Part shown: positions 36,478 through 55,630 of the stretch, piece by piece
Layout of the letters: the number at the start of each line of letters is the position of its first letter
How positions within the stretch are numbered: the first letter of the stretch is position 1
Position numbers and translations under genes: made by a program
The notes under the pieces: model-generated
Seen by the model: only the letters and a program-made list of their open reading frames with translations
The model's database searches: none
What the model was told of the DNA's origin: nothing
Assembly: GCA_030837085.1 (NCBI GenBank)
Contig: JAUPLE010000150.1
Coordinates: 3,016-67,015 of the forward strand
Source: Acidobacteriota bacterium
Lineage (GTDB): Bacteria > Acidobacteriota > Aminicenantia > UBA2199
DNA: 64,000 nt
Reading direction: 5' to 3'

Positions 36478-39400
36478 TCAAAAACCGAAACCGATTTCGT
36501 CCGCAGGCACCATTCCGGAAGTTGCCACCCCCAGATCACTGGAAATGGAAATATCCTTCAAATAAATGTCATTGTTTTCCATCACAGAAGCAATAATCTC
36601 TTCTAAATAAACAATAAACCTCTTAACCGTTTCCTTTTTAAAGAGGCATTTCCGATAAAATAATATGAGGGCCAACTCATTATTATATTCCATACCCACC
36701 AACCCCAGATCAAATTTCGCCTGTATATTAACATCGATTTGCTTTTGATTAACCAAAAGTTCACTATATCTAGCTTTTTCGTCGCGGGAATAAAAAGTCA
36801 AAAATACATCAAATAACGGATTGCGCATCCCTGTTCTCGTTATTACCAACTTATCCACTAGTTCTTCGAATTGATAGTCCTGGTTAGCAAAGGCATCCAT
36901 CGCCCTCTTTTTTACATTTCCCAGGAACTCCCTAAAGGTTATATTTTCGGAGGGGAAATTCTTCATTACCAAAGTATTTACAAACATACCAACAATTTTT
37001 TCTAAATCCGCATGCCTGCGGCCCATTATCACGGTACCGATGTTTATTTCCTCCTGACCGCTCAGTTTAAACAGCAATACATTAAGCAAAGAAAGAACAA
37101 TCATAAACATTGTAACATTTTCACGTCTTTCCAGCCCCCTTATTTTTCCCAGGTCATTTTTTTCTATCACAGAGATTACGTAGTCTCCCTCAATATTTTG
37201 ATAATTGGACCTCTGGAAATCAGTAGCTAAATTCAGATGAGTCATATCTCCTTTGAACTCCGTTAACCAATATTCTTCTTGCTGTTTAAGAGCATTTCGT
37301 TGTTCCCTGCAATTTTGCCACTCAGCATAATCTTTGTACTGAATCCGCAGTGGAGGTAATTCTTCTCCCCGGCTCAAAGCCATACTATCATCCATTAATA
37401 TATAGTGAGAAATTTCATCAGATATCACATGATGCATGTCCACCATCAATATATTTTCTTTCCTCCCGGTTAAAATAAAGCCCACCCGAAGGAGGGGGGG
37501 GTAGTGCAAATCAAACGAGCGGATGAAAATTTTCATTATATCTTTGATCTTAGCATCAGCCGCTTCTACGGAAGAGATATCAAAATCTTCTATTTCAAAT
37601 TCGATTTTATGGAACTCATGAACCCTCTGTCGTGGCTGATCTTCTATTATTTCCAGGGAGGTTCTCAAGCTTTCATGCCGTTGGATCAGTTTTCTAAAAA
37701 CATCCTCCAATTTTTTCTTTTCCAGGTCTTTTTGAATTTTAAACACCTGGGGTACGTTGTAAGCAGTACTCTTCATGCTCAATTGTTGTAAAAAATACAT
37801 CCGTTTCTGTGCTGACGATAATGAATAATACTCCTTTTTTTCCACGGGATATATCGATAAATATTTATCTTCAGCGGAGTAACTGATATAATGAGCTAAT
37901 GCTTCAACTGTGGGCGTTTTGAAAAAGTCTGCCAGGGGCATTTTCACATGAAACTCCTTATGAATTTTTGCCAACAGTATGGCTGATCTTAACGAGTGAC
38001 CACCTATTTCAAAAAAGTTAGAATGGATGCCTATTAACTCTTTTTCCCTTTCCAGAACGTTAGCGTACATCTCGATCAACTTCTCTTCTATTTTATTTCT
38101 CGGTCCGATATATTGTTTTCGTATCTCCCCGTCAGGGATCGGAAGTGCCTCTTTATCTATTTTCCCATTACGAGTTAAAGGGATGTTATCCAAATGAACA
38201 AAAAAGGAGGGGACCATATAATGCGGCAATTTCCCGGACAAATATTCCCGCAATTCCATACTATCAAATGTTTTTTCTGTCCCCATTACAGGAACAATAT
38301 AAGCACAAAGGTAACAATCTCCATTCTCTGCTGTCCGGGCAACGACAACGGTTTCTTTAATGTTCTTATGTCTTAATAAATGACTTTCTATTTCCCCCAA
38401 TTCGATCCGAAATCCCCTGATCTTAACCTGGTTATCGAGCCTCCCAAGGAATTCGATATTTCCATCAGGAAGCCATCGGACCAAGTCACCGGTGCGGTAA
38501 ACTTTGTCACTGGTCGTAAGCGATTGGTCATTTGTGAATGTGTTGGGAATGAATTTCTCTCCTGTCATGTCCGGGTTGTTTAAATATCCCCTACCGACAC
38601 CTATCCCGGCGATATGTAATTCACCTGGAGCGCCCGGGGGTTGAAGCTTCCCGCCAGAGCAAAGGATATAGGTTCTCATATTCACCAGGGGTTTACCGAT
38701 GGGAATACAATCCCGCTGTTTCATGTCGCCAGAAATTATGGTATAAGAAGTGGTCACATCACAGCACTCGGTGGGACCGTAAACATTAGTGATGGAGGTT
38801 CCCCCGTGGCCAAATCCGGTGAAAAACTGTTTCACCAACTTAGTGGATAAAGCTTCTCCCCCGATAACGAACTCCTTTACCTGGGGTGGAGGTACGTCTT
38901 GTTCCAGGCATTCCGATAATATTCGCATATGGGCAGGCGTTCCATCCACAATATCTACCCTATACCGCCTGTAAAATTCCAATAAACCAAAACCATCCAA
39001 CCGGGTATCCTCAGGGACAATATGCAAAGAATATCCAGACAATAATACCGTAAATACTTGTTTTACCGAAGCGTCAAATTCAAAAGGAGAAACCAAGCAT
39101 ACCTTCAACTCATTATCGCTATAACGATGGTAGATTCTTTCCCGCAAACCATGTACAAGGTTATTTACATTTCGATGTTCGAGCAACACCCCTTTAGGTG
39201 TTCCGGTAGAACCGGAAGTAAAGAAGACGTAAGCTAAATTACTGGGCCGATTGACAGGCAGCGGATTGGGAACCGATTCAGCCGGTAGTACTGCCATGGC
39301 ATCCAGGAGCAGGACTTTCCTTAAGGCCGATTTCGCAACATCAGTACTCCCTGAACATTGTTCAAGGAAGGCAAGTCCGGGAACTTTTTTCAATACCTCT

Positions 39401-42231: not shown

Positions 42232-45200
42232 TTAATAGTCGAATTCGGCCTCCAATTCAGTTGTGCGCTCCGAAGCAGACTGTACTACATCTACACAGCT
42301 ATAATCGTCACCCCGCATTTTTTTGATAAGCTCCTCTCGATCGGTTTCACTCAGGATGCATATCTCTGAAATTTTTTGCCTTGGATTAACCAGAACAGAA
42401 GAGACAATGGCCTTGAAATATTTGATCAACCGTGATATTGTTTCCGCCCTATATAGTTTGGTGCAGTACTGGAAGGTAAAATATAATTTTTCTCCTCTCT
42501 CGTTGGCAGTGAGAGTCAATTCGAATTTTGTTGTGTTATTCTCAAAGCCGATGATCGGAGCTTTCACTGCGACCTGGGATTGTGAGACTGGCAAAGGTGG
42601 TTCCTGTGGCACAATCTTACTCATATTTTCCATGGCAAAGACCACATCAAATAAGAGGTGGTGGCCGATATCCCTTCCCTGTGCTACTTTCTCTATCAGG
42701 TCTTCAAAACGGTAGTCCTGGTTTTCAAAGGCTTCCAGCGATCGTAACTTCACTTCATCAAGAAAATCGACGAAACGTTTCTCTCCTGAAGGAAAATTTC
42801 GCAGTGCTAACATGTTGACAAACATTCCAATGATCTTTTCCAGATCGGCATGCCCTCGGCCAGCCGTGGCAGTGCCCACAAGGATGTCTTCCTGGTGGGA
42901 AACGTGAAATAACAATATATAATATATGGACAGTAATACCATGAACAAGGTACTTTCTTCTTGCCGTGCCATTTCATTCAACGCCATTGTTATTTCAGCA
43001 TCAAGCTCGAACGCAATAACCCTTCCTTCGAAGCTCTGTAAAAAGGTCCTGGGATAATCAAGGGGCATTTTCAACCGGGGAATTTCTCCAGCTAACTGCT
43101 TTAGCCAGTACTCTTGCTGTCGTTTGAAAGCGTTGGTTTCGGACTGCTGATGTTGCCATTGGGAATAATCTTTATATTGGAGTTTTAAAGGAGGTAATTG
43201 GTTTCCCACATACAATGCGTTGTAATCCTGTTCTAATACCTGTTGAGAAACGCCATCCGATATGATGTGATGCATGTCTACCATCAGGATGTACCCTCCA
43301 TTCTTGGATTTTGTGATTCCCACTCTCAAAAGCGGCACCTGGGATAAATCAAAAGCCCGGACAAAACGTTGGATCCTTTTTCCAGCTTCCCGGGGAGAGT
43401 CCGATGAGTCGTAACCATCATCATATTGTTCTAATTCAATAGCGATGTCGTCGAATATCCGCTGAGCAGGTTCCCCATCGATCAATTCAAAAGAAGTTCT
43501 TAAGCTTTCATGCCTTTGTATTAATTTCTTGAAGGTATTCTTCAATCTATCCTTATCCACCTCACCTTCAAATACCAGGATTTTAGTCAGGTTGTAAGAG
43601 ATACTATCCGGGTTCATTTGCTGGAAGAAGAACAGTCTCTCCTGTGCAGGAGAGAGTGGATAGTATTCTTTCTTCTCCACAGAATCAATCGATAGGTATT
43701 TAGCTTTTTTATCTTTATCATTCCTAGCATCCTTCATTGTTATGTACCCGCTCAATCCCATTAATGTGGGTGTTTTAAATAACTGGACGAGGGGGATTTT
43801 CACGTCAAAGGTCTTGTGAATTTTCGAAATTAAGATGGTGGCTTTTAAGGAATGTCCGCCCAGATCGAAAAAATTGGCATTCAAACTAATGGTATTTTCA
43901 GCTATTCCCAGTACATCCGACCATATCTGTACTAGTTTTCTTTCTACCTCAGTCGTGGGGGGTATATACTCGGCTTTTACTTGTAAAGTCATCTTCCGCA
44001 ATCCTCGGGTGTCTATTTTACCACTGGCAGTGAGAGGCATTTTATCTACCTGGACAATGTAGGTGGGGATCATATAATTGGGCAATTTCGCACCCAGGCA
44101 GTCTCTAATTTCTGATGCCACTTGCAGTCTACTCGATACCACATAAGCACAGAAGTTTTTATCTCCCCTTTCATCTTCTTTTACCAAAACTACAGCCTCT
44201 TTTATATCTTCCATTTCCCGGAGGTGTTTTTCAATCTCCCCCAATTCAATGCGGAATCCCCTTATTTTTACTTGCTGGTCCACACGACCCAGGAATTCAA
44301 TATTCCCATCCGGCAGCCATCGGGCTTGATCTCCGCTTCGGTACATGATCGCTCTTTCTACAAATGGATTAGGTATAAATTTTTCAGCAGTCAACTGAGG
44401 CTGGTTCAAATATCCCCGAGCCACACCTTCTCCTGAAATGCAAAGCTCTCCCTGACCACCGATGGGCACCGGATTGAAATCATTGTCTAGTATATACAAC
44501 CTGTAATTCATCAAAGGTTTTCCAATGGGTATCCGTTGATTCAATGTAATTCCGTCGCATAGATAAAGGGCCGCGTTGATGGTAGTTTCTGTAGGACCGT
44601 ATATATTGAGAATACTCTCTGTTCTAAAAGTCTCTTTTAGCGCGACATAGAGCTCAGGGCTGAAGGTATCACCCCCCACAAACAAGTATTTTATCCAAAT
44701 CTTATCCTTTTCTATATTCTCTAGAAGCACCTTCATGAAGGCGGGAACGATATTCAATATGTTGATTTTGTTATCATGGATAAAGGGCCATAGTTTTAAG
44801 GGATCTTTCTTGACCTCTTCGCTAACCAGGAAAATTTTCGCACCAGTGGTTAGTGCAGAAAACAGATGCATCACCGAAACATCAAAGGTAATGGCTGCCA
44901 GCAGTAGATAATTGAAAGAGGCGTCCAGTTGGAACTTTTTCTTCAGACCTGTCAATTGATTGACTATATTACGGTGTTGGATCAGGGCGCCTTTGGGAAT
45001 ACCTGTGGAGCCGGAGGTGTAAATGATATAAGCAAGGTCATTGGAATTATTAATAGGTTCCGGGTTCTGATTGGATTCCCCATACAGGATGTCCGCAATG
45101 CGATCCGACAAAACCACTTCTCGGCACCTCTGCCGAAGTCTCGACTTTTCATCTTTTTCCAAAAAGGCGATTCCCTGGATATTCTTCAATACCTCGTCAT

Positions 45201-47943
45201 CCGGTAATTTTCCCCCGTTGTTCATGATTGCGGTCATCAACTCCGCCATGGTAATCTCGCCTTCCTCCAAGACAGCAAGATCGATATTAGTATCTTGCAG
45301 CATAATGTCGTAACTGCTGGTCGCGTAAGGTCCACCGGCAATAATAGGCCCATCGAAACCCCATTGACGAATTAAAGCGAGGCTTTTGTGGCAAAAGTTC
45401 CTGAAGTAATTCATACTACGCACGCCAATAATATCGGGTTTGAAATTTTCCACTAGTGCCTTCATCTCGGCATAGTTATCGAAATCTACCTGGGATTTAG
45501 CTATCTTTCCAGTAATCCGTTCCCCAAAGATTTTATTCAAATAGGTCAACAAATACATCAGCCCCAAAGGCGGGTCTACTACATGGTACATCTCCAGTCT
45601 TTCATGTGAAAAATGCTGCGATAGATCCAGTAACAGCAGACGTGTGGAGGAAGGATTATTTTTATGTACGGGGAAATATTGCCTCACTTTTTCATTAAAA
45701 TTTTCTACTTTCCCGTAATCTTCGGGTAAAAACTCCCCTTTGATCTCATCCCTGGCGATGCCGATATAATTAAGCAAGTCTAAAAAAGTTTTGATATCTA
45801 CCGGGAGGTAACTGTTGTACTTTTGAACCAATTCATCTTCTGTTAGCATAGCCATTTGATTGGGCAGCACATTTCGCAATCGTTCTTTGTTCAGAAAAAA
45901 TTCTCCCAGATACTCTGCCTGACATTGGCGAGTAAAACTCTCCGAGAAGGGCAAGGTATAAGGTAGTTCATGGTATCCCAGGTCCATTGATTTCACAATA
46001 GATTCCTCAGAGATGCCGTGCTCCATGGCAAATCGAGCCATGGCGGTGTTGGGGTAAATTTTTAATATGTGCATATAGCCGAAAGGAAGCCAGCGGAAAC
46101 TTTTTATAAATTCCAATGAAGCCCTGGCTTCTTCTTCGGTCTCAGTGGGGAAACCGTGCATAATTTGAACTCCCAGTATAGCCCGTGGATAGTTTTCGAT
46201 AATATATTCGACATTCCTATGCAGCCTTTCGATATTCACATTCTTGCGGATCAATTTTTGCAGCCGGGGGGAGGCGGTCTCCAATGCCAGGTCCATTGTA
46301 ACTGCTCCAGCTTCCATCATGAGGTCGATAAAATCCGGCGTCAGGATATCCCCCCGGATGCCGTTGGGATAGTGCATGTGTATTTTTAATTTGTTTTTGA
46401 TCACCAATTGGTAAAATTTACCGATTTCCTTTTTATTGAAATTAGGCAGGTCATCGGTGAATCCAAATCGCCGAATGCCCATATTGTAATACATATTGAC
46501 TTCCTCGAAAAGGTTCTCGCCTGAGCGCAGCGAGTATTTATCGGGCCAGATTTTAAAACAATAGAGGCATTTAAAAATACATCCCCTACTGAATTGAACT
46601 GTAATGCTGTTTTTAACCATGGATTGTCCGATATAAGGATGATACTTTTCATAATCCACCAATGAACGATTGGGGAACTGCAGTGTATCTAGGTCCATCA
46701 CCTGAGGTCGTTTAGGGGTAACGATTTTTTTACTACATCTTCCTTCAAAATTCTGAAAATTGATATACTTAAATTTACAAATCAGTTCATCTTTGGTTAG
46801 TAATAGAGAGGCACTGCTGTCATCCAGCATAGTGAGGCTTCGTGCTTCTGGCAAATCTGCGCTAATAGGTAGATAAGCCCCCCCGGCTTTTAGAATTGCC
46901 AGTATGCTCACCACCATATCCAAGGAATTATCCATCAGGATGCCTGCAATTTTGTCTGATCCGAGCCCTCTTTTTCTCAACATTCGTGCCAGCCGATTTG
47001 CCATCTCATTTAATTGGTTGTAAGACAGGCATTGAATTCCATCCGTCGCCACAACAGCGATTTTGTGGGGTGTCTTTTCCACCTGCTCTTCAAATAAGAG
47101 ATGAAGGGTTTTCTGATTCGGGTAGTCAGCATCGGTACGATTAAAATGAAACAAAAGTTGATTTCGTTCTTCTTCTGAAAGAAAATTTACAAGGGATAAT
47201 GGGACATTAACCCCAGGCAACGCACGGTTCAATAAATGAATTAAGTTAGAAATAATCCCTTGAATAGTACTTTTCCGATAAACCAGAGGATTGTACTCTA
47301 CCTTCCCTTCAATACTCCCTCCATCTACTCGGAGAAAAGAAAAAATCAAATGAAGGTGGAGATGAAGGCGTTGCAAATATTTTGGCTCATGAATATTTTC
47401 AAGTAGTACCACTGTATCAAATAACCGGAAATCCCCCTCAGCGGCAGGTATATTCAACTGTTCTGCCAAAATCTCCACCGGGAAATTCTGGTGTTCCACT
47501 GCCTCTTGAAGGGTCTCTCTTACTCGCAGCAGGAGATCCTTAAAAGTCATGCCATCACTCAACTGTGCCCTTACAGCCAGGAGTGTATTGATAAACTCGC
47601 GATCAGCTTCCTGCTTATAGATGGGCGTTCCGACAATGATATCGTTTATTCCTGTATATTTATTTAATAATTGCATCAGGCCTGCCAGCAAAAGAATATG
47701 TAGTGTGTAATCATTGCCGCCGCAGATATTCATTATACTGGACGTCAGAGAGTCACTAAATTTAAAATCTACTTCCTCCGGTTCTTTGGGTTGATACCCG
47801 GGGACACTGTGTTTTATCACAAAATCATATGGAAAACTGCTCTTTATCCATTCGCCAGCCAAATGCTTTAACCAATAATTTTTTTCTTTAAGATTCTGAT
47901 TGGCTGCGATCAATTGCTCTTCTGAATAATATATACTTCTCAT
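42232..47943 (-). CDS. NRPS module Clobe - A[rSAM-B12 insertion between a2 and a3] - T - C (1903 aa), tail ...ELEAEFDY; paralog of 36478..42162
   Basis: A1/A2 LSYNQLNEMANRLA and LKAGGAYLPIS. Insertion with SRGCIFKCLYCFKIW and B12 segment. A3 LAYIIYTSGSTGIPKG, YRSGDQARW, GRVDQQVKIRGFRIELGEIE. T FFDLGGHSLKA. C MHHIISDGVSQ. Confidence 0.85.
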   Translation of the reverse strand: MRSIYYSEEQLIAANQNLKEKNYWLKHLAGEWIKSSFPYDFVIKHSVPGYQPKEPEEVDFKFSDSLTSSIMNICGGNDYTLHILLLAGLMQLLNKYTGINDIIVGTPIYKQEADREFINTLLAVRAQLSDGMTFKDLLLRVRETLQEAVEHQNFPVEILAEQLNIPAAEGDFRLFDTVVLLENIHEPKYLQRLHLHLHLIFSFLRVDGGSIEGKVEYNPLVYRKSTIQGIISNLIHLLNRALPGVNVPLSLVNFLSEEERNQLLFHFNRTDADYPNQKTLHLLFEEQVEKTPHKIAVVATDGIQCLSYNQLNEMANRLARMLRKRGLGSDKIAGILMDNSLDMVVSILAILKAGGAYLPISADLPEARSLTMLDDSSASLLLTKDELICKFKYINFQNFEGRCSKKIVTPKRPQVMDLDTLQFPNRSLVDYEKYHPYIGQSMVKNSITVQFSRGCIFKCLYCFKIWPDKYSLRSGENLFEEVNMYYNMGIRRFGFTDDLPNFNKKEIGKFYQLVIKNKLKIHMHYPNGIRGDILTPDFIDLMMEAGAVTMDLALETASPRLQKLIRKNVNIERLHRNVEYIIENYPRAILGVQIMHGFPTETEEEARASLEFIKSFRWLPFGYMHILKIYPNTAMARFAMEHGISEESIVKSMDLGYHELPYTLPFSESFTRQCQAEYLGEFFLNKERLRNVLPNQMAMLTEDELVQKYNSYLPVDIKTFLDLLNYIGIARDEIKGEFLPEDYGKVENFNEKVRQYFPVHKNNPSSTRLLLLDLSQHFSHERLEMYHVVDPPLGLMYLLTYLNKIFGERITGKIAKSQVDFDNYAEMKALVENFKPDIIGVRSMNYFRNFCHKSLALIRQWGFDGPIIAGGPYATSSYDIMLQDTNIDLAVLEEGEITMAELMTAIMNNGGKLPDDEVLKNIQGIAFLEKDEKSRLRQRCREVVLSDRIADILYGESNQNPEPINNSNDLAYIIYTSGSTGIPKGALIQHRNIVNQLTGLKKKFQLDASFNYLLLAAITFDVSVMHLFSALTTGAKIFLVSEEVKKDPLKLWPFIHDNKINILNIVPAFMKVLLENIEKDKIWIKYLFVGGDTFSPELYVALKETFRTESILNIYGPTETTINAALYLCDGITLNQRIPIGKPLMNYRLYILDNDFNPVPIGGQGELCISGEGVARGYLNQPQLTAEKFIPNPFVERAIMYRSGDQARWLPDGNIEFLGRVDQQVKIRGFRIELGEIEKHLREMEDIKEAVVLVKEDERGDKNFCAYVVSSRLQVASEIRDCLGAKLPNYMIPTYIVQVDKMPLTASGKIDTRGLRKMTLQVKAEYIPPTTEVERKLVQIWSDVLGIAENTISLNANFFDLGGHSLKATILISKIHKTFDVKIPLVQLFKTPTLMGLSGYITMKDARNDKDKKAKYLSIDSVEKKEYYPLSPAQERLFFFQQMNPDSISYNLTKILVFEGEVDKDRLKNTFKKLIQRHESLRTSFELIDGEPAQRIFDDIAIELEQYDDGYDSSDSPREAGKRIQRFVRAFDLSQVPLLRVGITKSKNGGYILMVDMHHIISDGVSQQVLEQDYNALYVGNQLPPLKLQYKDYSQWQHQQSETNAFKRQQEYWLKQLAGEIPRLKMPLDYPRTFLQSFEGRVIAFELDAEITMALNEMARQEESTLFMVLLSIYYILLFHVSHQEDILVGTATAGRGHADLEKIIGMFVNMLALRNFPSGEKRFVDFLDEVKLRSLEAFENQDYRFEDLIEKVAQGRDIGHHLLFDVVFAMENMSKIVPQEPPLPVSQSQVAVKAPIIGFENNTTKFELTLTANERGEKLYFTFQYCTKLYRAETISRLIKYFKAIVSSVLVNPRQKISEICILSETDREELIKKMRGDDYSCVDVVQSASERTTELEAEFDY
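45124..46671 (-). other. Embedded radical-SAM core followed by a B12-binding domain inside the A domain
   Basis: CxxxCxxC encoded at 46558-46581 (revcomp gga tgt att ttt aaa tgc ctc tat tgt = GCIFKCLYC). rSAM motifs GIRRFGFTDD, ALETASPRLQKLIRK, MHGFPTETEEEA. B12 motifs LLLLDLSQ..DPPLGLMYLLTYLNK, PIIAGGPYATSSYD, DLAVLEEGEITMAELM. Confidence 0.8.
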
Positions 47944-47965: not shown

Positions 47966-50900
47966 TTAAAAATTAAAATTTACCTCCGGCATATTAACCT
48001 GAGCCGTCTCCAGCCGGTGAGAAACTTTGATGTCTTTTAGTTTAATATTTTTATTTTCAGTCACAATACGAGAAATTTCTTCATAATGTTTGGCAAATCT
48101 CTCAATAGTTTCCCTTTTAAATAACTTTGTACAATATCTTAATGTAAAATGAACAACCTCAGAAATTTCATTAGCATGAATAATAATATCAAATTGTGTG
48201 GTCTTCACCTCTATAGGATAGAGACTAAAAACCAAATTACCAAGTCCCGGTCCCTCTTTGGGTACATTTGAATTCTCGACATAAATATTATGGAGGGTAA
48301 AATGAGTATCAAATAATACCTGCCGTCCGGCATCCCGCTGGATACCGAGCAGGTTAACCAGTTCATCGAATTGATAATCTTGGTTTTCATAGGCTTTTAA
48401 TGCATTGGTTTTTACTTCTTTTAGAAAATCAAGAAAGGTAATTTCTCCGTAGGGGTGATTACGCATAGCCAATGTATTCACAAAAAATCCGATAACATGC
48501 TCCAGGTCTACATGGGGACGCCCCGCGCTGGAACTTCCCACCACTATATCTTCCTGCCCGGTGTATTTATACAAAAGGATATTATAAATAGCTAATAATG
48601 CCATGTAAAGGGTGGCCCCCACTTTTGAGGCAATTTCATAAATGTCCGCTATTAGATTTTTATCTAGGACAAATATGATGGTATCTCCTTCAAAGCTCTG
48701 GACCTTCTGCCTAGGGTAATCGGTAGATAAATTGAGCGTCGGGATATCACCGGAAAAGACATTTAGCCAGTATTCTTCTTGCTTTTTGAGAACACCGGAT
48801 TCTCTTAGATTATTTTGCCAGATGGAAAAATCTTTATACTGGATTCTTATAGAGGGAAGTTCCATTCCGGCAAACAATGATATAAATTCTCTGATATATA
48901 GCTGGAATGATGTCCCGTCACTAATGATATGATGCATATCGTATATTAACAGATGGTTCTCTTCTGCCAATTTTAACAGCCCCACCCTCTGCAAGGGAGC
49001 TTTACCCAGATCAAAAGGCTGCACAAAAGCATTGATGATGTCTTTGATTTGCTGGTTTGAAATGGCGTGGATTTCGCTGTTTGCGTCTATCTGGGTAATT
49101 TTTAAACCGACACTTTCATGCACTCTCTGTACCGGATGATGATCCACCATTTCAAAGGAAGTCCGAAGCAACTCATGCCGTTCTATCATTCGATTAATTG
49201 TGCTCTCTAAGCATTCATAGTCTAGGGGACCATCAACTTGATACACCCCCGGGATATTATCACTGGTTGTAGTCTTGATCTGACTTAACAAAAACATGCG
49301 CATCTGTGCGGAGGATAATGGATAATATTCCTTTTTTTCTACCGGCTGAATCGAGGTATATATCTCTTCCTCCGATCCCATCAAGTACCGGGATAATTCT
49401 CTTATAGTTGGAGTTTTAAACACTTCTCCCACAGGTAATTTCATATTTAATTCTTTATTTACCCTTGCAGCCATTATCGTGGCGTTTAACGAGTGCCCAC
49501 CTAGTTCGAAGAAATTGGAATCGATGCCGAAGGTATTTTTTTCCTTCCCCAGCAATGCAGACCATATCTTCATGAGTGTTTCTTCAACATCATTCCGGGG
49601 AGCTACCAATTCCTTCCTTGTTTCTAATCCAGGTTCCGGCAGTGCTTTTATATCAACCTTACCATTTGGAGTTAATGGCAACCGCTCCAGCGAAATAAAA
49701 TACATTGGGATCATATAATCCGGTAATTCTTCCCGCAGGTATTCCCTCAGTTCTTTGGATAAAGAGCCTGTATCCGGCATCCTATTATTTACTTCAAATG
49801 TATATTCAACTCCATTAAACAGCGCTTCGTAAAATTGTTTCATGGAAATATCTTTCCTTTCGAGGTTCCCGCTTGATCCGGGAGAATAGATCATATACGC
49901 AGGCCGATCCGGCCGGATTTCAGTGGGAATTTCGATCATATTGGGAGTATCGTCTTCCTTTTCCATTTCTTCGATATGGGTTATATTAATAATGGCTATA
50001 TTCATATTAACTCTATTTCTCAATTTTTCCGCTGTGTCCACCCAATCATCATTGGTTACTATAATTCGACTTTCGGAATCTTCAAGGATATTAGTCAATT
50101 CTTCCAGGGAAGAAGAAGTATCTAAATGAACATATACCTTACCGGATTTCATCGCTCCAACGGCTCCAATTGCCAGGTGAGTATCCTGGTTGACTAGTAG
50201 TGCAATGGTTTCCAGTTTTTCTTCTTCTCTTTTTTCTTCCTGGATATAAGTGACCGAATGGGCTTTTTCCCTTTGTTCTTCAAGGGCTTTTCGCATTTCC
50301 ATACCTCTTGAACCACACACCGGGCAATCGGGATCCGGTTCTATTTTAAGCTCTTCCAGGAAATTCCCTCTCCAACCGATTTCCCAATCAAATCCCTGCT
50401 CTTTACATAGCCTTATGAAATGATCACTGAAAAGATGAGTCATTGCTTTATATCCTGGAGTAAAAGCCAGGTCAGTGGCGGCACCTCTTTGATTAAAATA
50501 AAAAAATTTGTTATAAGCCGGTTCTTCAAATCCCAATAAAATTTTCAATGCTTCATTTACTACTACTCCAGTACTGATGAAAAGGGATGTTGATACGACA
50601 GGAAGGGGGTTTTTACTATAATTCGCGACATAATGTTTCATCGCATTAACTATAGTTTCCAGCTTTGCCTTATCGAATAGGCAGTGATAACATGGAGTAT
50701 GGGGTGAATGTAATACCGCCGCATAAGCATTAATATCCGTCATAGATATGATCAAATGAGGAATTTGTTTAACAATTGCACATTCAGATAAGATGAACTT
50801 ATCTGCCGGGCCATCGAACATATCGAAAATAATGGCCGAATCTCCTACTAGTTCAAATACGTTTTCACGGGTTAGTTTCTGGGTGCATGGTACTACCTTA

Positions 50901-53900
50901 ACATGGGGATTGGTTTTGCCGACCGTAATTTGGGCAGAGATTGCTTTGTTCATTCCCAGGCGTTCGTCGTTATGTAAGAACTGACGGTTTAAGTTACTTA
51001 ATTCAACTGTATCAAAATCGCAGATTTTAATAGTCCCAAAACCAGCTAATGCCAGTTGAGTAACTGTGGGAGAAGCACCGCCGCCGGCACCGGCAACAAA
51101 TACGGTGGTGCTCTTCAATTTTTCCTGGGAAGCCTGGCCCCAACCGGCCAAAAGCATCTGGCGAATGTACCTGATTCGTTCTTGCTTCGATAATTTGTAT
51201 CGGTCATCATACTTCTCAAGGATGAGACAGGCCAACCGATTGGCATATTGATCCAAGGTTTCAAAGGTTAACGAGCGCTTGTTGGATTTTACAGCGATTT
51301 TCTTGCGGTTCATTCCCGCTTGCTCAATATAATGTTTTTTAATTCCTAACTCCCGGAAAGTAATTACTTTTTTCTGATTTTCCATTTTCTCTTTCCGGTC
51401 GACCCGAGGAGGAGATATCCCCTCATTTGCTTTTGAAACGATGTAGGCACATATGTATTTCTCTCCCTGCTCGTCGCCAGGTTTGACACCGAGCATTGCG
51501 GCAGCCTTTACAATCACCAGCGCATCATCCACAATAGGATGTTTACGCAACCGATTCTCTATCTCTCCCAATTCGATCCGGTATCCCCTAATCTTTACTT
51601 GTTTATCGATTCTTCCAAGGAATGCTATAGTACCATTGGACAGCCAGCAGGCAAGATCGCCAGTACGGTAGGCAGGATAATGAAGTGACGAAGTGATGGT
51701 GGAATGCAGTGATGGAAAGACAAACTTATCTATGGTTAATTCCGGTTGGTTCAAATAGCCCCTAGCCAGACAGGTTCCAGATATGCACAATTCACCCGGA
51801 ACACTTATGGGTAATAAATTCAAATCCTTCCCCAATACATATATATTGGCATTATAGATGGGTTTTCCTATTACCGGTTGTTGTTGATATTTTTCAAAAT
51901 TTTCAAAATCGACAAAGGTGGAAATGCAACCGATGGTAGCTTCCGTGGGACCGTAATGATTCATGATATGAAGATGGGGACAAAGTGCATGGGCTTTTTC
52001 AAGGTCTTTCACGTTAATGGGTTCACCACCTATCACAGCCAATCGCAACGTCCGGCATTTCAGCAGGGAAAAACCGGGCGCATTAATAATTGCTGAGAAA
52101 AGAGAAGGAGTTACCTTTAAATAAGTAATTTCCTTCTGCAGAATGTAGTCCAATAACCCGTCGGGCAATAAATACATTTCCCTGGATAATATGTGTAATT
52201 GGCCGCCGTTTAAAATCGAGGGGAATAATGTAGTATAACCTAGGTCAAAGGCAAAAGAAGATGTCAATATGGCCTTATCACATGGAGTTAAACTTGTGGT
52301 TTTGGTGAACCAATGAACATAATTGACTACGCTCCGATGGGAAAGGATAGTGCCTTTTGGTTTACCGGTGGTGCCGGAGGTGTAGATGACGTAAGCATCA
52401 TTGTCTGCTAAGGCAGTTAATCCGAAGGTTGAGATTGAGAGAGATGATAGATTTGAGATATCGATTATTCCAAAAGATACCTTCTCTATCCCAGCTTTAA
52501 GCTTAGCTATGGTTTCTGGTGTTGCCACCAAAGTTTTTGCATTGCTATCCTTTAACATATATTCAATTCGACCACTGGGGAATTCCGGATCTATTGGCAT
52601 AAAAGCACAGCCAGCTTTCATTATTCCCAAAATTCCTACAGGTATATCTACAGAACGCTCCAACATGATGCCCACAACTTGATTCGGAGTTACCCCCTTT
52701 AACTTTAACTCCATTGACAGTTGATTTGCTTTTTCATGCAACTGTCGATAAGTCAGCACTTGGTTAACAATTAATCCTCTTCTGATGTCTTTTTTGTATT
52801 GATCTACCTTTTTATTCATTTCCAGATAAAAGCTGGTGATCATGGAATTCATTCGATCATCTTTAAAATAAATGTATGGATAATTAAGTTCTTCAGTTGT
52901 TAAATAATTAGAGTTATTGTTAAAGCTTTTTTGACTGTAGGTTAAAAACTCCTCAAAATTAGAGGCATAAGCATACATCTGGTATTTTCCAGCATCCTCT
53001 AAGATTGGTGCCCCCGGTTGAGCATGCAAACGCGCCCAATGTAGTTCACCAAAACATGAATGGTTATTTATAATTTTAGACAGCAATTGTTTACTAGGCT
53101 CAATATCTTCCTGAGTAAAACAAGGGAGACCAGTGATTAAATTCAACCTTACTTCAATATTAGGATATTCATCACATCGGTCCATAAACTGCATAATATC
53201 TTCATCAGTAGGCTGGGGCTTGACCAATCCCATGGAGAATAACAACTTCCTGTGCGTCTCGGAGGGAGTACAAATATCGAAATCCCAGTATACATATTTA
53301 AAGGTTTGGCTGACCAACTTGATCAATTGCGCGGATGGGGGTGTTAATGTAGAAAAAATACAAAAGTGCCCGGAGAGATCAATTCCCTCCCATATCTGTC
53401 GACAATATTCAACTAGACGCTTATCCAGGATATCAAATTCGAACATAAAAGTAGATGTATATGGTTTGGCCTCCATTATATCTTTCCTGACTTCTTCTAC
53501 TCCACGTTTAAATACTTTTTTTCGGTTGAATGCCTTTTGATGTACTCGATTACAACCGCCACAGTATAGGCAGTTCATTTCACACCCTTTATGGGTAACG
53601 ATAAAAAATGTGCCCAAACGTGAAGTATAATGGGAAAGTAATATTTCATCCAGGTGTGATAGATAAACTTCCCGACTGACGGTCTCATCCTGAACATAAC
53701 CGATTGGATTCACAATAATCCGCCCGTCATTTTTATATACGCAATTGGGGATACTACCAATATCCTCTCCCCGGCATATTCTCAACAGTGGGTCCTCACC
53801 ATCCCCTCGAACCAGGATATCAAAACAGTCATACATCATTATTTTTTCCGGGTAATAGGAAGCAGTATTGCCCCCCACAACAATTTTTATTTCTAATGAA

Positions 53901-55630
53901 TTATTTCGGGCATATTCTTTTATGATTGTCCCCATTTCGATTACCCGTGCGATGTAGAGAAACCACTTCATACTAATGGCAACAATTTCCGGCTGAACCT
54001 GCTGCAAAAGTGTCTCAATATTTTTTTTCATGGAAGCATAGTCCGTACTATTATCATAGAACTGGCAGCGTGTTTTGATCCCCTTCCGCATTAAATAAGA
54101 ACCCAGGTATAATAAACCAGTAGAAGGAGTCCCCGATGTATCTCCCAGAAGTAACACTTGGGCTTTAGTTATTTCTTCATCTTTAAATTTCCGCCAAAAC
54201 CAGTCTATACTTAATTCTGTGACCACTTCCTTTTCAAAACTACCGCTGTGCGACTTCGACGATCGGGCTTCCATTCCATCGTCATTAACTCCCACCAGAT
54301 CGATCAAATGGTTCCGGTAAAGAGTTTGAACCAATGGAACCAAATCTTCAAATTCATCCACAGTATAAATCTCCGGCCGGTTATTGAATTGAAAGAAAAC
54401 TTCCAAGAGGTCGGTCTTGTTCATAGTATATATGAGAAATGCAGCTTCATTATCTTCCATGGTTTTAATTTGTTTATAAATGGTTTTTAAATTTCTCCTG
54501 CCGTCAAAAAGTACAATTAACTCAGCCATATTCTTATTGACAATCACACTGTTGTGCCAATTTGTTTTTAACAATTTCCAACCACTTTTAGAGAAAGGCT
54601 GCTCCAGATCAGCATGATAAATAAAAAGATTCTTATTAAAACAACAGGTTTCCATTTGTTTATTCACCCCGACGTCTGTGCCTATGGATTCCAACAAGTT
54701 ATATATATCACTCAGATCAATAGGAGAAAACACAGCGGTTTTATCCGGAGTTTTTTCCACCTGCTCTTCAAACCATTGATGGATGGTCTTTCCAGAAGGG
54801 TATCCTGTCTCAGTATTATTAAAATCCAGTAGAATCTGCTTTTTCTCTTGCGGAGTTAGCATGCCCAGGTGAGAAAGCGGTAAATCTACATTAAAAATGG
54901 CCTCCCGAAGCAGTTGGTTAAAATGGCCGACCAGCTTTTCTAGGGTGGTTTTCTTATACAATGCCGTGTTATATTCCAAAATTCCTATGATATAGGGAAT
55001 ACTCCCATCTGCTTCTTCTATCCGGAAAATAAATGTCAGACTGCACGGAGTATGTCGGAGATATTTTTTATTATGGATATTTTCAAGTAGAACCGCCACA
55101 TCAAAAAGTGGCGATCCCTCTTCAAATGTATCTGCATCAAACTTTAGTTTTTCTGTTAACAGTTCGATCGGATAATTTTGATTATCAATAGCATCGGTGA
55201 GGGTTTGTCTTACCTGCAATATGAATTCTCTAAAAGAGACATTCTTTCCCACCCTATTTCTCAACACCAATATCGTATTTATAAAATCACCGTCCATTTC
55301 TTGTTCATAAATAGGTGTTCCGACAATAATGTCTCGATTGCCGATATACTTGTGCAGTAAAAGGATGACGCCAGCAATAAACAGCAAGTTCAAGGTGAAA
55401 TTTGAACCTTTACTCAACACCATTAATTTAGCTGCAATTTCCTCATCAAATTTAAAAATGGTGGAATCAAACTCAGCGGCTTCATCAATATAGGTACTTG
55501 TTTTTTTGTAGTCATAGGGGAAATGGGCTTTTACCAATTCTCCAGCCAATTGCTTTAGCCAAAAATCCTTTTCCTTTAAATTTTGTTCTGCGGCTATTCT
55601 CAACAATTTTGGATAATTCTTATGGATCAT
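47966..55630 (-). CDS. NRPS module Clobe - unknown 200-aa region - [B12 then rSAM] - A[ThiF/E1-like domain plus degenerate A fragment at a8-a9] - T - C (2554 aa), tail ...EVNFNF
   Basis: Clobe (DFWLKQLAGE, FINTILVLRN, NQNYPIE, SPLFDV). A core A1 LTYRQLHEKANQLS, A3 AYVIYTSGTTGKPKG, A5 NHYGPTEAT, A7 YRTGDLACW, A8 GRIDKQVKIRGYRIELGEIE, A9/A10 LPDYMIP..PNGKVD. T FFELGGHSLNA. C MHHIISDGTSF. Confidence 0.85.
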   Translation of the reverse strand: MIHKNYPKLLRIAAEQNLKEKDFWLKQLAGELVKAHFPYDYKKTSTYIDEAAEFDSTIFKFDEEIAAKLMVLSKGSNFTLNLLFIAGVILLLHKYIGNRDIIVGTPIYEQEMDGDFINTILVLRNRVGKNVSFREFILQVRQTLTDAIDNQNYPIELLTEKLKFDADTFEEGSPLFDVAVLLENIHNKKYLRHTPCSLTFIFRIEEADGSIPYIIGILEYNTALYKKTTLEKLVGHFNQLLREAIFNVDLPLSHLGMLTPQEKKQILLDFNNTETGYPSGKTIHQWFEEQVEKTPDKTAVFSPIDLSDIYNLLESIGTDVGVNKQMETCCFNKNLFIYHADLEQPFSKSGWKLLKTNWHNSVIVNKNMAELIVLFDGRRNLKTIYKQIKTMEDNEAAFLIYTMNKTDLLEVFFQFNNRPEIYTVDEFEDLVPLVQTLYRNHLIDLVGVNDDGMEARSSKSHSGSFEKEVVTELSIDWFWRKFKDEEITKAQVLLLGDTSGTPSTGLLYLGSYLMRKGIKTRCQFYDNSTDYASMKKNIETLLQQVQPEIVAISMKWFLYIARVIEMGTIIKEYARNNSLEIKIVVGGNTASYYPEKIMMYDCFDILVRGDGEDPLLRICRGEDIGSIPNCVYKNDGRIIVNPIGYVQDETVSREVYLSHLDEILLSHYTSRLGTFFIVTHKGCEMNCLYCGGCNRVHQKAFNRKKVFKRGVEEVRKDIMEAKPYTSTFMFEFDILDKRLVEYCRQIWEGIDLSGHFCIFSTLTPPSAQLIKLVSQTFKYVYWDFDICTPSETHRKLLFSMGLVKPQPTDEDIMQFMDRCDEYPNIEVRLNLITGLPCFTQEDIEPSKQLLSKIINNHSCFGELHWARLHAQPGAPILEDAGKYQMYAYASNFEEFLTYSQKSFNNNSNYLTTEELNYPYIYFKDDRMNSMITSFYLEMNKKVDQYKKDIRRGLIVNQVLTYRQLHEKANQLSMELKLKGVTPNQVVGIMLERSVDIPVGILGIMKAGCAFMPIDPEFPSGRIEYMLKDSNAKTLVATPETIAKLKAGIEKVSFGIIDISNLSSLSISTFGLTALADNDAYVIYTSGTTGKPKGTILSHRSVVNYVHWFTKTTSLTPCDKAILTSSFAFDLGYTTLFPSILNGGQLHILSREMYLLPDGLLDYILQKEITYLKVTPSLFSAIINAPGFSLLKCRTLRLAVIGGEPINVKDLEKAHALCPHLHIMNHYGPTEATIGCISTFVDFENFEKYQQQPVIGKPIYNANIYVLGKDLNLLPISVPGELCISGTCLARGYLNQPELTIDKFVFPSLHSTITSSLHYPAYRTGDLACWLSNGTIAFLGRIDKQVKIRGYRIELGEIENRLRKHPIVDDALVIVKAAAMLGVKPGDEQGEKYICAYIVSKANEGISPPRVDRKEKMENQKKVITFRELGIKKHYIEQAGMNRKKIAVKSNKRSLTFETLDQYANRLACLILEKYDDRYKLSKQERIRYIRQMLLAGWGQASQEKLKSTTVFVAGAGGGASPTVTQLALAGFGTIKICDFDTVELSNLNRQFLHNDERLGMNKAISAQITVGKTNPHVKVVPCTQKLTRENVFELVGDSAIIFDMFDGPADKFILSECAIVKQIPHLIISMTDINAYAAVLHSPHTPCYHCLFDKAKLETIVNAMKHYVANYSKNPLPVVSTSLFISTGVVVNEALKILLGFEEPAYNKFFYFNQRGAATDLAFTPGYKAMTHLFSDHFIRLCKEQGFDWEIGWRGNFLEELKIEPDPDCPVCGSRGMEMRKALEEQREKAHSVTYIQEEKREEEKLETIALLVNQDTHLAIGAVGAMKSGKVYVHLDTSSSLEELTNILEDSESRIIVTNDDWVDTAEKLRNRVNMNIAIINITHIEEMEKEDDTPNMIEIPTEIRPDRPAYMIYSPGSSGNLERKDISMKQFYEALFNGVEYTFEVNNRMPDTGSLSKELREYLREELPDYMIPMYFISLERLPLTPNGKVDIKALPEPGLETRKELVAPRNDVEETLMKIWSALLGKEKNTFGIDSNFFELGGHSLNATIMAARVNKELNMKLPVGEVFKTPTIRELSRYLMGSEEEIYTSIQPVEKKEYYPLSSAQMRMFLLSQIKTTTSDNIPGVYQVDGPLDYECLESTINRMIERHELLRTSFEMVDHHPVQRVHESVGLKITQIDANSEIHAISNQQIKDIINAFVQPFDLGKAPLQRVGLLKLAEENHLLIYDMHHIISDGTSFQLYIREFISLFAGMELPSIRIQYKDFSIWQNNLRESGVLKKQEEYWLNVFSGDIPTLNLSTDYPRQKVQSFEGDTIIFVLDKNLIADIYEIASKVGATLYMALLAIYNILLYKYTGQEDIVVGSSSAGRPHVDLEHVIGFFVNTLAMRNHPYGEITFLDFLKEVKTNALKAYENQDYQFDELVNLLGIQRDAGRQVLFDTHFTLHNIYVENSNVPKEGPGLGNLVFSLYPIEVKTTQFDIIIHANEISEVVHFTLRYCTKLFKRETIERFAKHYEEISRIVTENKNIKLKDIKVSHRLETAQVNMPEVNFNF
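49853..50179 (-). other. Degenerate duplicate of an A-domain a2-a3 segment, following the ThiF-like domain
   Basis: LAIGAVGAMKSGKVYVHLD resembles A2 LAILKAGGAYVPLD. PAYMIYSPGSSGNLERKD resembles A3 LAYxIYTSGSTGxPKG but has lost the P-loop Thr/Gly and Lys residues. Confidence 0.5.
50306..51118 (-). other. ThiF/MoeB (E1-like adenylyltransferase) domain embedded between A8 and A9 of the A domain
   Basis: VFVAGAGGGASPTVTQLALAGFGTIKICDFDTVELSNLNRQ is the E1 nucleotide-binding signature. Downstream zinc-knuckle CYHC...CPVCGS. DNA checked at 51061-51120. Confidence 0.8.
52931..54163 (-). other. B12-binding domain followed by a radical-SAM core (canonical class-B order), located before core motif A1 of the A domain
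   Basis: B12 motifs AQVLLLGDTSGTPSTGLLYLGSYL, IKIVVGGNTASYYPEKI, DILVRGDGEDPLLRI. rSAM motif THKGCEMNCLYCGGC (CxxxCxxC), followed by about 200 aa of rSAM-like barrel sequence. Confidence 0.75.

Follow-up and report, generated by a model that had tools for sequence, protein, structure and literature searches.

What is an E1-like adenylating domain doing inside the adenylation (A) domain of a nonribosomal peptide synthetase (NRPS)? The question arises from a 64,000-nucleotide stretch of DNA from an Acidobacteriota bacterium (Aminicenantia, UBA2199; GenBank assembly GCA_030837085.1, contig JAUPLE010000150.1, positions 3,016 to 67,015), which was analysed at its full length and is called the window below. 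Positions 47966-55630 on its minus strand form a single unbroken open reading frame (ORF), with zero internal stops, that encodes an NRPS of 2554 amino acids (aa). A sequence-only reading of positions 49853-51118 (minus strand, aa 1505-1926 of the 2554-aa NRPS) had proposed that a ThiF/MoeB-type domain, followed by a degenerate A-domain fragment, is inserted into the A domain of this protein between core motifs a8 and a9. We give about an even chance to the view that the guest is a working E1-like adenylating domain with an in-line tailoring role in the NRPS module, like that of methyltransferase domains inserted at a8-a9.

The presence of a ThiF domain in the NRPS was confirmed. Pfam ThiF (PF00899) matches aa 1488-1714 with an E-value of 5.8e-47 and 160.3 bits (gathering cutoff 28.1), a match that chance does not account for, and the domain runs from about aa 1480, at the arginine-finger helix RYIRQ (aa 1487-1491), to about aa 1775, just past a CPVC motif (aa 1769-1772). 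When a profile of the domain and 17 homologues was compared with solved structures, MoeB (1jw9_B, 4.1e-32) and ThiF were the top matches, with MoeB in first place. The AlphaFold2 (AF2) model of the domain reached a predicted local distance difference test score (pLDDT) of 82.7 and a predicted TM-score (pTM) of 0.84, a Foldseek search with this model returned Uba4, MoeB, PaaA, ThiF and MccB (E-values of 1e-16 to 1e-20), and its target TM-scores on ThiF and MoeB structures were 0.88-0.94. By profile match and structural model, the guest is a member of the ThiF family in the E1-like superfamily, with a predicted E1 adenylation fold.

The insertion site also proved to be as proposed, and every motif string quoted in support of it occurs at its given place in the protein. 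The host A domain carries motifs a1-a8 within aa 959-1358 and a9/a10 within aa 1969-1993, and the sequence between a8 (GRIDKQVKIRGYRIELGEIE, aa 1339-1358) and a9 (LPDYMIP, aa 1969-1975) is foreign; the EKYICAYIV string lies at aa 1390-1398 and PNGKVD at aa 1988-1993. Pfam AMP-binding_C matches aa 1954-1991, downstream of the insert, and covers profile positions 41-76 only, while the equivalent of the preceding half covers profile positions 1-38 in the related locus L013. Because the profile resumes at position 41, the insert splits the C-terminal subdomain of the A domain at a8-a9, which is the site of methyltransferase (M) domain insertions (PMC8341866). The host is therefore an interrupted A domain of the a8-a9 type with all ten core motifs present. 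The sequence-only reading had placed the guest correctly and underestimated its size: the whole insert comprises aa 1400-1955 (window positions 49766-51433) with the ThiF domain nested within it, and ThiF starts about 25 residues upstream of position 51118.

The material around the ThiF domain is itself informative on the origin of the insert. The degenerate a2-a3 fragment noticed after ThiF was borne out, being collinear with GrsA 92-222 (E = 3e-11), with AMKSGKVYVHLD at aa 1826-1837 and YSPGSSGNLERK at aa 1915-1926. A decayed a1 string, LTFETLDQYANRLA, lies upstream of ThiF at aa 1454-1467 in a segment that had escaped notice, and the a4-a8 core of this second A domain is missing from the cassette. 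Since the flanks are collinear with GrsA 29-84 and 92-222, the cassette corresponds to the N-terminal portion of another A domain, with ThiF as an interruption between a1 and a2. In two relatives (P0005 and P0006) a complete A domain has ThiF between its a1 and a2 motifs, an arrangement that, on sequence comparison, is taken to be the intact ancestor state of the window cassette. A history may be proposed in which a second A domain was interrupted by ThiF at a1-a2 and its catalytic core was then lost, leaving the a1 and a2-a3 stubs as linkers. The remnants are 32% identical to those of L008, the closest relative from another genome, and they are deleted in L013 and L014, where ThiF sits directly between a8 and a9. 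In the AF2 model of a 696-aa segment (a1 stub, ThiF, a2-a3 stub, a9-a10 and carrier (T) domain), ThiF and T were folded well and the second-A remnant was predicted to be disordered from the a3 region onward.

The nested origin of the insert, a second cassette in the same A domain (B12-binding/radical S-adenosylmethionine (radical-SAM), see below) and the existence of a whole family of ThiF-bearing NRPSs had all been missed from the sequence alone. In a search of 5.8 billion proteins, this clade was separated from all other ThiF proteins by a bit-score gap (at least 223 versus at most 93), and ThiF-nitroreductase proteins were remote matches only (39-49 bits). A HMMER scan of 1.84 billion cluster representatives gave 18,513 ThiF-like matches, of which the top 59 (298-605 bits; the best representatives at 50% identity) match over nearly the full domain, including its clade-specific C-terminal part, and are nearly all 900-6200 aa long. 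Among GTDB genomes there were 31 clade loci, in Aminicenantes, Ca. Deferrimicrobium, Omnitrophota, Halanaerobiales and many Clostridia, and cultured carriers include Ruminiclostridium hungatei DSM 14427, Wukongibacter sp. M2B1 (L030) and Clostridiaceae bacterium M8S5, whose ThiF-A-T protein (P0028) has 909 aa. The Wukongibacter strain has been called W. baidiensis M2B1 and has 16 uncharacterised clusters; its baidienmycins come from another cluster than the ThiF-NRPS one (PMC11916717).

ThiF occupies several positions in these proteins. It is found at a8-a9, mostly with an upstream B12/radical-SAM cassette, in the window and in L008-L014, L016 and L025; N-terminally or at a1-a2 of an intact A domain in L015, L017, L019-L021, L023, L026-L029, L032 and L034; at a2-a3 in L018, L022 and L024; and as a stand-alone protein of about 300-320 aa inside NRPS clusters in L007 (gene order A-T-C, ThiF, C-A-T-C, TE, where C is a condensation and TE a thioesterase domain) and in L004 (NRPS-polyketide synthase (PKS), carbamoyltransferase-like, ThiF). 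The ThiF module can be initiating (L018, L028), terminal before the thioesterase (L013) or, as in the window, internal, given the condensation domain downstream of its T domain. In a neighbour-joining tree the clade hangs on a single long branch apart from MoeB, and its subclades correspond to the code of the host A domain.

Is the domain catalytically equipped? Residues were compared by alignment to Escherichia coli MoeB for the window domain and 31 relatives (n = 32). MoeB R14, D62, R73, K86 and D127/D130 correspond to R1490, D1538, R1549, K1562 and D1603/D1606, so the adenylation arginines and aspartates for which the sequence-only reading had suggested a check (R1490, R1549, D1538, D1606) are present; the nucleotide loop GAGGGAS (G-loop, aa 1514-1520) is intact, and SNLNRQ lies at aa 1545-1550. 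The scored adenylation positions are invariant in 32/32 members apart from two G-loop exceptions, namely an Asp for the second Gly in L009 and, in roughly one third of the members (the window among them), an Ala at the fourth position. The zinc cysteines are also in place (C1647/C1650 of CYHC, aa 1647-1650, and C1769/C1772 of CPVC), and the first pair, which was scored, is invariant in all 32. The two CxxC pairs are spaced about 50 aa further apart than in MoeB, and an insertion of about 50 aa, specific to the clade and containing the motif QGFDWEIGWRG (aa 1745-1755), lies between them. The catalytic cysteine did not pass the same check: the sulfur-transfer position (ThiF C184, MoeB C187) is Thr in the window and Thr, Ser, Glu, Asp, Gln, His or Leu across the clade. 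Nor were equivalog cutoffs reached for MoeB (NF006444, 141.5 versus 449; TIGR02355, 104.6 versus 376.55), ThiF (TIGR02356, 131 versus 275.25) or MoeZ (117.4 versus 647).

Conservation was also compared along the module. Between the window and L008-L010, ThiF is 77-80% identical (80% to L008), compared with 58-60% for the A core, 58-64% for the a9-a10 subdomain, 55-58% for the T domain and 32-37% for the second-A remnants. By sequence identity, no other part of the module is as strongly constrained as ThiF, which appears to be under strong purifying selection, and the stubs, which diverge or are deleted while ThiF is kept, are best read as decaying linkers.

We then asked which amino acids are selected by the A domains that host ThiF. 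Specificity codes were extracted from a MAFFT alignment anchored on GrsA, for which the GrsA sequence returns the canonical DAWTIAAICK; a BLAST-mapped code, DLTKRAHIC, was discarded as its letters were shifted after position 278. The window host has the aspartate code DLTKVGHIG(K), and DLTKVGHI is the Asp code of surfactin SrfAB-M2 (PMC3207962; PMC10548584). The a8-a9 relatives from the GTDB set all have DLTK[VA]GHIG, except L025 (DAKDVGV.., Glu-type) and L016 (DARHLSLMI). Codes could be typed for 53 of the 59 cluster representatives: 16 have DLTK/DLSK..GHIG (Asp); six have DAKD (Glu-type) at a8-a9, among them one with surfactin's exact code for Glu, DAKDLGVVD; DGKDLGVVD is found in one N-side host; seven have DARH, DPRH or DPRS; 21 have the His278-containing codes DAMH, DAVH, DAIH, SAMH or SAVH; and two have other codes. 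A hydrophobic, Ser, Thr, Gly or Pro code was found in none of the 53, and the A domains without ThiF in the same proteins have ordinary Ile, Leu, Val, Thr, Ser and Gly codes. The host code DPRHLA[IV]LA agrees at eight of nine extracted positions with DPRHLALLAK, reported for alpha-aminoadipate (PMC12283262), and the supplement of that paper contains none of the host codes. The stand-alone ThiF of L007 directly precedes a C-A(DLTKFKHIG)-T-C gene. Judged by these codes, a link to dicarboxylic amino acids is strongly indicated in about 40% of hosts and plausible in the remainder.

The codes bear directly on what ThiF could act upon. An exact Asp code keeps K278 and H322 for binding of the beta-carboxylate, implying that the A domain selects Asp with this group free; chemistry on the beta-carboxylate would then have to follow loading, and, as the alpha-carboxylate is used in the thioester, the side chain is the only carboxylate left for adenylation in the module. 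In the mechanism that we favour, the host A domain would pick free L-aspartate and load its alpha-carboxyl onto the adjacent carrier, whereupon the ThiF domain, probably as a homodimer, would use ATP to adenylate the free beta-carboxylate of the carrier-bound residue or of a peptide ending in that residue. The acyl-adenylate would be captured by an amine (giving a side-chain amide, branch or ring), by an intramolecular nitrogen (lactam or imide) or by sulfide (thioacid). That ThiF tailors in line in this way, adenylating the side-chain carboxylate of carrier-bound Asp or Glu for subsequent capture, seems to us an evenly balanced proposition. The sequence-only reading had offered the adenylation of a second carboxylate on the tethered substrate as one option, and the Asp/Glu-type host codes favour it; we infer rather than observe that the tethered side-chain carboxylate is the substrate, that the domain dimerises and how the steps after adenylation proceed. 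The MoeB R14-type arginine finger acts across the dimer, and its conservation suggests dimerisation of the ThiF domain by homology.

Since the module may be initiating, internal or terminal, the chemistry is probably independent of neighbouring residues. In internal modules the alpha-amine could not be consumed before condensation, which favours a nucleophile (amine or sulfide) that is external or belongs to a side chain, or else a reaction that follows condensation. The proposal has precedents. M domains act on the carrier-bound residue. The AMDH domain of CysH and AlbIV, which has an ATP motif and lies in Asn-specific A domains, acts on carrier-bound Asn (PMC7966384), and ThiF-like enzymes that belong neither to sulfur-carrier nor to ubiquitin-like systems generally turn a carboxylate into its adenylate, on which an N, S or O nucleophile close by then acts to yield an amide, ring or thiolactone (PMC12596934). 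The last module of L013 (5717-12310), P0007 and P0008 has the order rSAM-A(Asp)-ThiF-T and is followed by a thioesterase, such that the modified Asp would be the C-terminal residue of those products. More broadly, and with slightly less than even confidence, we propose a new class of in-line NRPS domain in anaerobes, in which E1-like re-activation of the side-chain carboxylate of a carrier-bound Asp, Glu or aminoadipate-type residue would lead, with B12/radical-SAM partners, to chemistry so far unknown in NRPSs, for example side-chain thioacids, branched or cyclic amides and imides, and would force the module to dimerise.

Several observations weigh against this mechanism. ThiF-like enzymes almost always act on the C-termini of proteins or peptides, with OxzB the sole small-molecule case (PMC12596934). 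A partner that would supply the nucleophile, such as a glutaminase or an amine donor, was not found; neither glutaminase nor desulfurase nor rhodanese was among the recurrent accessory genes around 29 loci. The pairing of domain and substrate is drawn from sequence, and the AF2 model of the 696-aa segment had no confident inter-domain contact between ThiF and T (pTM 0.53). Of the 53 host codes, about 31 are uncharacterised, which makes the acidic label partly extrapolated; for the DAMH codes it leans on a presumed likeness to DAWHFGGVDK, a code for Glu. Hosts with the Asp code are relatives of one another, and the code counts are phylogenetically non-independent. More distant stand-alone relatives in Lachnospiraceae adjoin genes for a Dlt-like ligase and MBOAT, not Asp modules, and the common denominator of the family may therefore be A-domain/carrier systems in general and not acidic residues.

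Other explanations have to be set beside adenylation of a tethered side chain. The closest solved relatives of the domain (MoeB, ThiF, Uba4) activate sulfur carriers, its zinc tetracysteine is kept, and the host groups (Aminicenantes, Deferrimicrobium, Omnitrophota, Clostridia, Halanaerobiales) are ones that we take to be anaerobic, with sulfide plentiful. It might accordingly make a thiocarboxylate, either through a ThiS/MoaD-type carrier encoded elsewhere or by direct attack of sulfide on the adenylated, tethered carboxylate, which we consider unlikely overall. ThiS and MoaD acyl-adenylates react with sulfide in vitro, and the direct-sulfide version fits all the evidence that favours our mechanism and differs from it in the nucleophile only, so that a thioacid formed from free sulfide is a possible variant of that mechanism. 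Recruitment of a sulfur carrier, as the sequence-only reading had suggested, fared poorly. That reading had itself seen no YcaO, ThiS-like or MoaD-like gene in the window, and Pfam on the window ORFs and a scan for Gly-Gly (GG) ends agree: no credible ThiS/MoaD-like ORF of 50-130 aa ending in Gly-Gly was found in the window or in loci L001-L038 (about 10 kb around relatives), the four matches of the small-ORF scan being all spurious, and no rhodanese, cysteine desulfurase, JAMM or YcaO Pfam domain was found in any window ORF (for YcaO, ORFs of at least 80 aa). The variable C184/C187 position and the MoeB, ThiF and MoeZ equivalog scores far under their cutoffs also speak against it, as does the clade-specific insert of about 50 aa: it falls in the C-terminal part of the domain, which in MoeB contacts MoaD.

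ThiF and MoeB are obligate dimers, and the fold could serve non-catalytically, as a dimerisation or scaffold element that holds two modules together or recruits the B12/radical-SAM partner, much like the inactive ThiF-type proteins that dock with YcaO cyclodehydratases. Binding-only ThiF-like proteins are documented in azoline pathways of RiPPs (peptides that are made by the ribosome and then modified post-translationally; PMC12596934), and B12/radical-SAM domains or genes co-occur with ThiF in at least 13 loci. We nevertheless regard a pure scaffold as improbable, given that the ATP-, Mg- and phosphate-binding residues, which pure scaffolds normally lose, are invariant in 32/32 members from several phyla and that ThiF is better conserved than the catalytic A core. 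We assign a similarly low probability to ThiF as an alternative loader that adenylates another carboxylic acid, be it a free one, an N-acyl amino acid or the C-terminus of a peptide, and hands it on to the phosphopantetheine thiol, so supplying the module with a second building block. E1 chemistry does end in a thioester, ThiF stands at the N-terminus of initiation modules (ThiF-A-T in L020, L027-L029 and L032), and in the window the core of the second A domain was lost while ThiF was kept; yet each module has one T domain and an intact Asp-code A domain, leaving no free carrier for a second loader, no RiPP recognition element (RRE)/peptide-clamp domain or precursor-peptide gene was found, and the restriction of hosts to Asp/Glu-type codes would be left unexplained. 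The decaying flanks of the insert (32% identity, degenerate P-loop, predicted disorder) could lastly suggest that the whole cassette is functionless recombination debris of a tandem A-A fusion. This reading is effectively refuted by the conservation pattern and is almost certainly wrong: the ORF is intact, ThiF still shares 80% identity with a relative in another genome, although the linkers around it have diverged or disappeared, its catalytic residues are invariant, and at least 59 cluster representatives retain it, at four different positions.

More specific identities were considered and rejected. A bona fide MoeB or ThiF is ruled out by the equivalog scores, the lack of a carrier gene nearby and the non-conserved transfer cysteine. 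A RiPP-type MccB/PaaA enzyme is not indicated, as the protein has no RRE-type Pfam match and ThiF starts at the RYIRQ helix after the a1 stub; for a YcaO partner, a type whose E1 residues are usually degenerate, there is no YcaO domain in window ORFs of at least 80 aa and the catalytic residues are intact. The protein likewise has no nitroreductase match (OxzB-type fusion), no methyltransferase Pfam match (SAM-methyltransferase guest) and no SGGKD/SGGxD motif (AMDH domain), and its host code is Asp, not Asn.

Table 1. Features of the ThiF-bearing NRPS gene and related features of the window (positions in the 64,000-nucleotide stretch).
Feature	Position	Strand	Details	Basis
Host NRPS gene	47966..55630	-	Half C, B12/radical-SAM cassette, A (Asp) with ThiF cassette, T, C	ORF and Pfam
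Half condensation domain at start of host NRPS	54773-55630	-	Without HHxxxDG	
B12-binding/radical-SAM cassette	52766..54730	-	About 655 aa, aa 301-955	Pfam B12-binding, aa 502-615
Host A-domain core	51557..52765	-	aa 956-1358; a1-a8 all intact	Pfam AMP-binding, best stretch aa 956-1293
A-domain C-terminal subdomain, first half	51434..51556	-	aa 1359-1399; ends EKYICAYIV	Sequence
Second-A-domain remnant, pre-a1/a1 segment	51209..51379	-	aa 1418-1474; LTFETLDQYANRLA	Collinear with GrsA 29-84, E = 3e-05
ThiF/MoeB-type E1-like adenylyltransferase domain	50306..51193	-	aa 1480-1775	Pfam PF00899, structure matches
Second-A-domain remnant, a2 to degenerate a3 P-loop	49841..50206	-	aa 1809-1930; a2 AMKSGKVYVHLD, a3 YSPGSSGNLERK	Collinear with GrsA 92-222, E = 3e-11
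A-domain C-terminal subdomain, second half	49631..49765	-	aa 1956-2000; a9 LPDYMIP, a10 PNGKVD	Pfam AMP-binding_C
Carrier (T) domain	49382..49579	-	aa 2018-2083; GGHSL at aa 2044-2048	Pfam PP-binding, E = 5.7e-15
Downstream condensation domain	48002..49333	-	aa 2100-2543; HHIISDG	Pfam Condensation
Radical-SAM cassettes of three NRPS genes	52766-54730, ~45064-47046, ~39283-41250	-	CxxxCxxC at aa 683, 455, 460	
FAAL-like A, ACP, KS, AT, KR, ACP, sulfotransferase, C gene	27415-36429	-		
Relic of stand-alone B12/radical-SAM protein	17488-18429	-	313 aa	No Pfam match; aligns to homologues

The second interruption of the host A domain, the B12/radical-SAM cassette (Table 1), is inserted after the pre-a1 string FEEQVEKTPD and has its CxxxCxxC motif at aa 683-690; against TIGR04190, its best NCBIfam match, it scores 110 bits (cutoff 500). 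Cassettes of this kind, about 650 aa long, occur in three consecutive NRPS genes (47966-55630, 42232-47943 and 36478-42162), and in two of the three they visibly follow pre-a1 FEEQVxKTPD at the N-terminal edge of the A domain. Even a stand-alone radical-SAM methyltransferase together with an NRPS was described in 2025 as 'an unusual enzyme combination' (PMC12858407), wording that makes the embedded cassettes look unreported. A separate, stand-alone B12/radical-SAM family adjoins or lies near the ThiF-NRPS genes in L012, L018, L025 and L030, with remoter homologues in L027-L029, and is the only accessory family that recurs broadly around the 29 loci. The window retains a relic of it, which aligns to residues 65-247 and 428-569 of 562-581-aa homologues and lacks the radical-SAM core; the intact homologues are 48-54% identical to each other. 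The co-occurrence of ThiF with B12/radical-SAM domains or genes hints at coupled chemistry.

The window as a whole is one large minus-strand NRPS-PKS cluster with several conventional NRPS modules, a second KS-KR-T-C gene, a class-III aminotransferase, a terminal TubC-dock-C-A-T-TE gene and a MacB-type transporter. The gene with the FAAL-like A domain has its sulfotransferase followed by a condensation domain, versus a thioesterase in CurM-type terminal-alkene modules, and the position of a loading-type domain midway along the gene order points to an assembly line that is non-collinear or in two parts. The genes 47966-55630 and 60763-63477 each begin with only the C-terminal half of a condensation domain (Pfam profile positions 195-456 in the latter), while the genes preceding both end in an apparent C-terminal part of a C domain; 42232-47943 and 36478-42162 also have two condensation stretches each. 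These half condensation domains could reflect a docking or split-domain arrangement.

The family also has branches in other settings. A subgroup of 306-aa stand-alone proteins (P0013, P0014, P0016, P0018, P0020, P0033), 57-64% identical to the window ThiF, has lost the RYxRQ helix and has an altered NRQ motif, and from its sequences may be a divergent side branch, degenerate or repurposed; in L002 (10001-13449, P0016) its gene shares an operon with those of a 432-aa Pfam-less protein and a pyridoxal phosphate (PLP) aminotransferase or desulfurase-like protein. Stand-alone relatives in gut Lachnospiraceae/Roseburia/Coprococcus (L033, L035-L038; 42-46% identity) follow a response-regulator/histidine-kinase pair, and that of L038 precedes a DltA-like ligase, MBOAT and type II thioesterase (assigned by eye from ORF N-termini), a setting in which the E1-like protein accompanies an A-domain/carrier system other than an NRPS. 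Loci with a SAMH code (L023 4677-8230 of R. hungatei; L019, L026, L034) have a penicillin-amidase family protein of 835 aa and, in most, a MatE exporter, and a 6PGDH-like NAD-binding reductase (316 aa) occurs in L019, L021, L023 and L026; among the accessory genes, MatE, penicillin amidase and NAD-binding reductase are confined to this subgroup. The SAMH code lacks Asp235, suggesting a substrate without a normal alpha-amino group.

How, then, does the ThiF module compare with known systems? The nearest architectural relatives are the M-interrupted A domains, families 1-7 of Garneau-Tsodikova and co-workers, with sites at a8-a9 and a2-a3 (PMC8341866). As in those, the guest is spliced at a8-a9 of a complete A domain, relatives also use a2-a3, di-interruption exists, and the guest is presumed to act on the residue that its host loads (PMC8341866). 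Unlike them, the window guest is an ATP-dependent type of enzyme, an E1-like adenylyltransferase, wrapped in second-A stubs; ThiF also uses the a1-a2/N-terminal site, and the second interruption is a B12/radical-SAM cassette. The words ThiF, MoeB and radical SAM are absent from the 2020 survey of interrupted A domains (PMC8341866), and, being ThiF and no methyltransferase, the guest represents a new type outside families 1-7. The closest functional precedent is the AMDH of CysH (cystobactamid) and AlbIV (albicidin), a guest with an ATP-binding motif in A domains of one defined specificity, which acts in cis on the side-chain carbonyl, dehydrating to beta-cyano-Ala or isomerising to isoAsn (PMC7966384). 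The AMDH fold is unrelated, however (PP-loop, SGGKD), and its host code is Asn with a carboxamide as target, whereas here the code is Asp and the target would be a carboxylate.

With MoeB, ThiF and Uba4 the window domain shares the fold, nucleotide loop, Arg finger, catalytic Asp and zinc tetracysteine, but it is embedded in an NRPS, has no carrier gene nearby and no conserved transfer cysteine, and has the extra stretch of about 50 aa (QGFDW..GWRG). The ThiF-like RiPP enzymes MccB, PaaA, GrcB and IndF form a succinimide/phosphoramidate, an indolizidinone from Glu side chains, a thiolactone and an indolylamide (PMC12596934); they too adenylate a carboxylate for intramolecular capture, and PaaA and MccB are among the top structural matches of the window domain. 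In contrast to the window domain, which has no RRE and a presumed carrier-bound, non-ribosomal substrate, they have an N-terminal RRE/peptide clamp and ribosomal precursors. A 2025 review names OxzB, the oxazolone synthetase, as the sole ThiF-like enzyme validated outside RiPP pathways and the sole one with a small-molecule substrate (PMC12596934). OxzB resembles the proposed activity in adenylating a small-molecule carboxylate, with cyclisation of an N-acyl amino acid, and differs from it as a free-standing ThiF-nitroreductase that acts on free N-acyl-Tyr with no NRPS or carrier protein. The same review asks whether NRPS systems use ThiF-like enzymes (PMC12596934), and full-text literature searches with ThiF and NRPS terms returned no description of a ThiF domain in an NRPS. 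The locus and its roughly 60 cluster-level relatives answer that question at the genomic level: an E1-like domain has been built repeatedly into NRPS A domains, appears strongly selected and is tied to modules for residues that are, by their codes, predicted to be acidic. If the proposed mechanism is right, the NRPS repertoire would gain a new catalytic domain type, by which a second carboxylate is activated with ATP before the chain leaves the assembly line. New structural features would then be expected in the orphan products that anaerobes make, and engineers would have a portable cassette for which at least three sites of insertion are tolerated; the cultured carriers make the mechanism directly testable.

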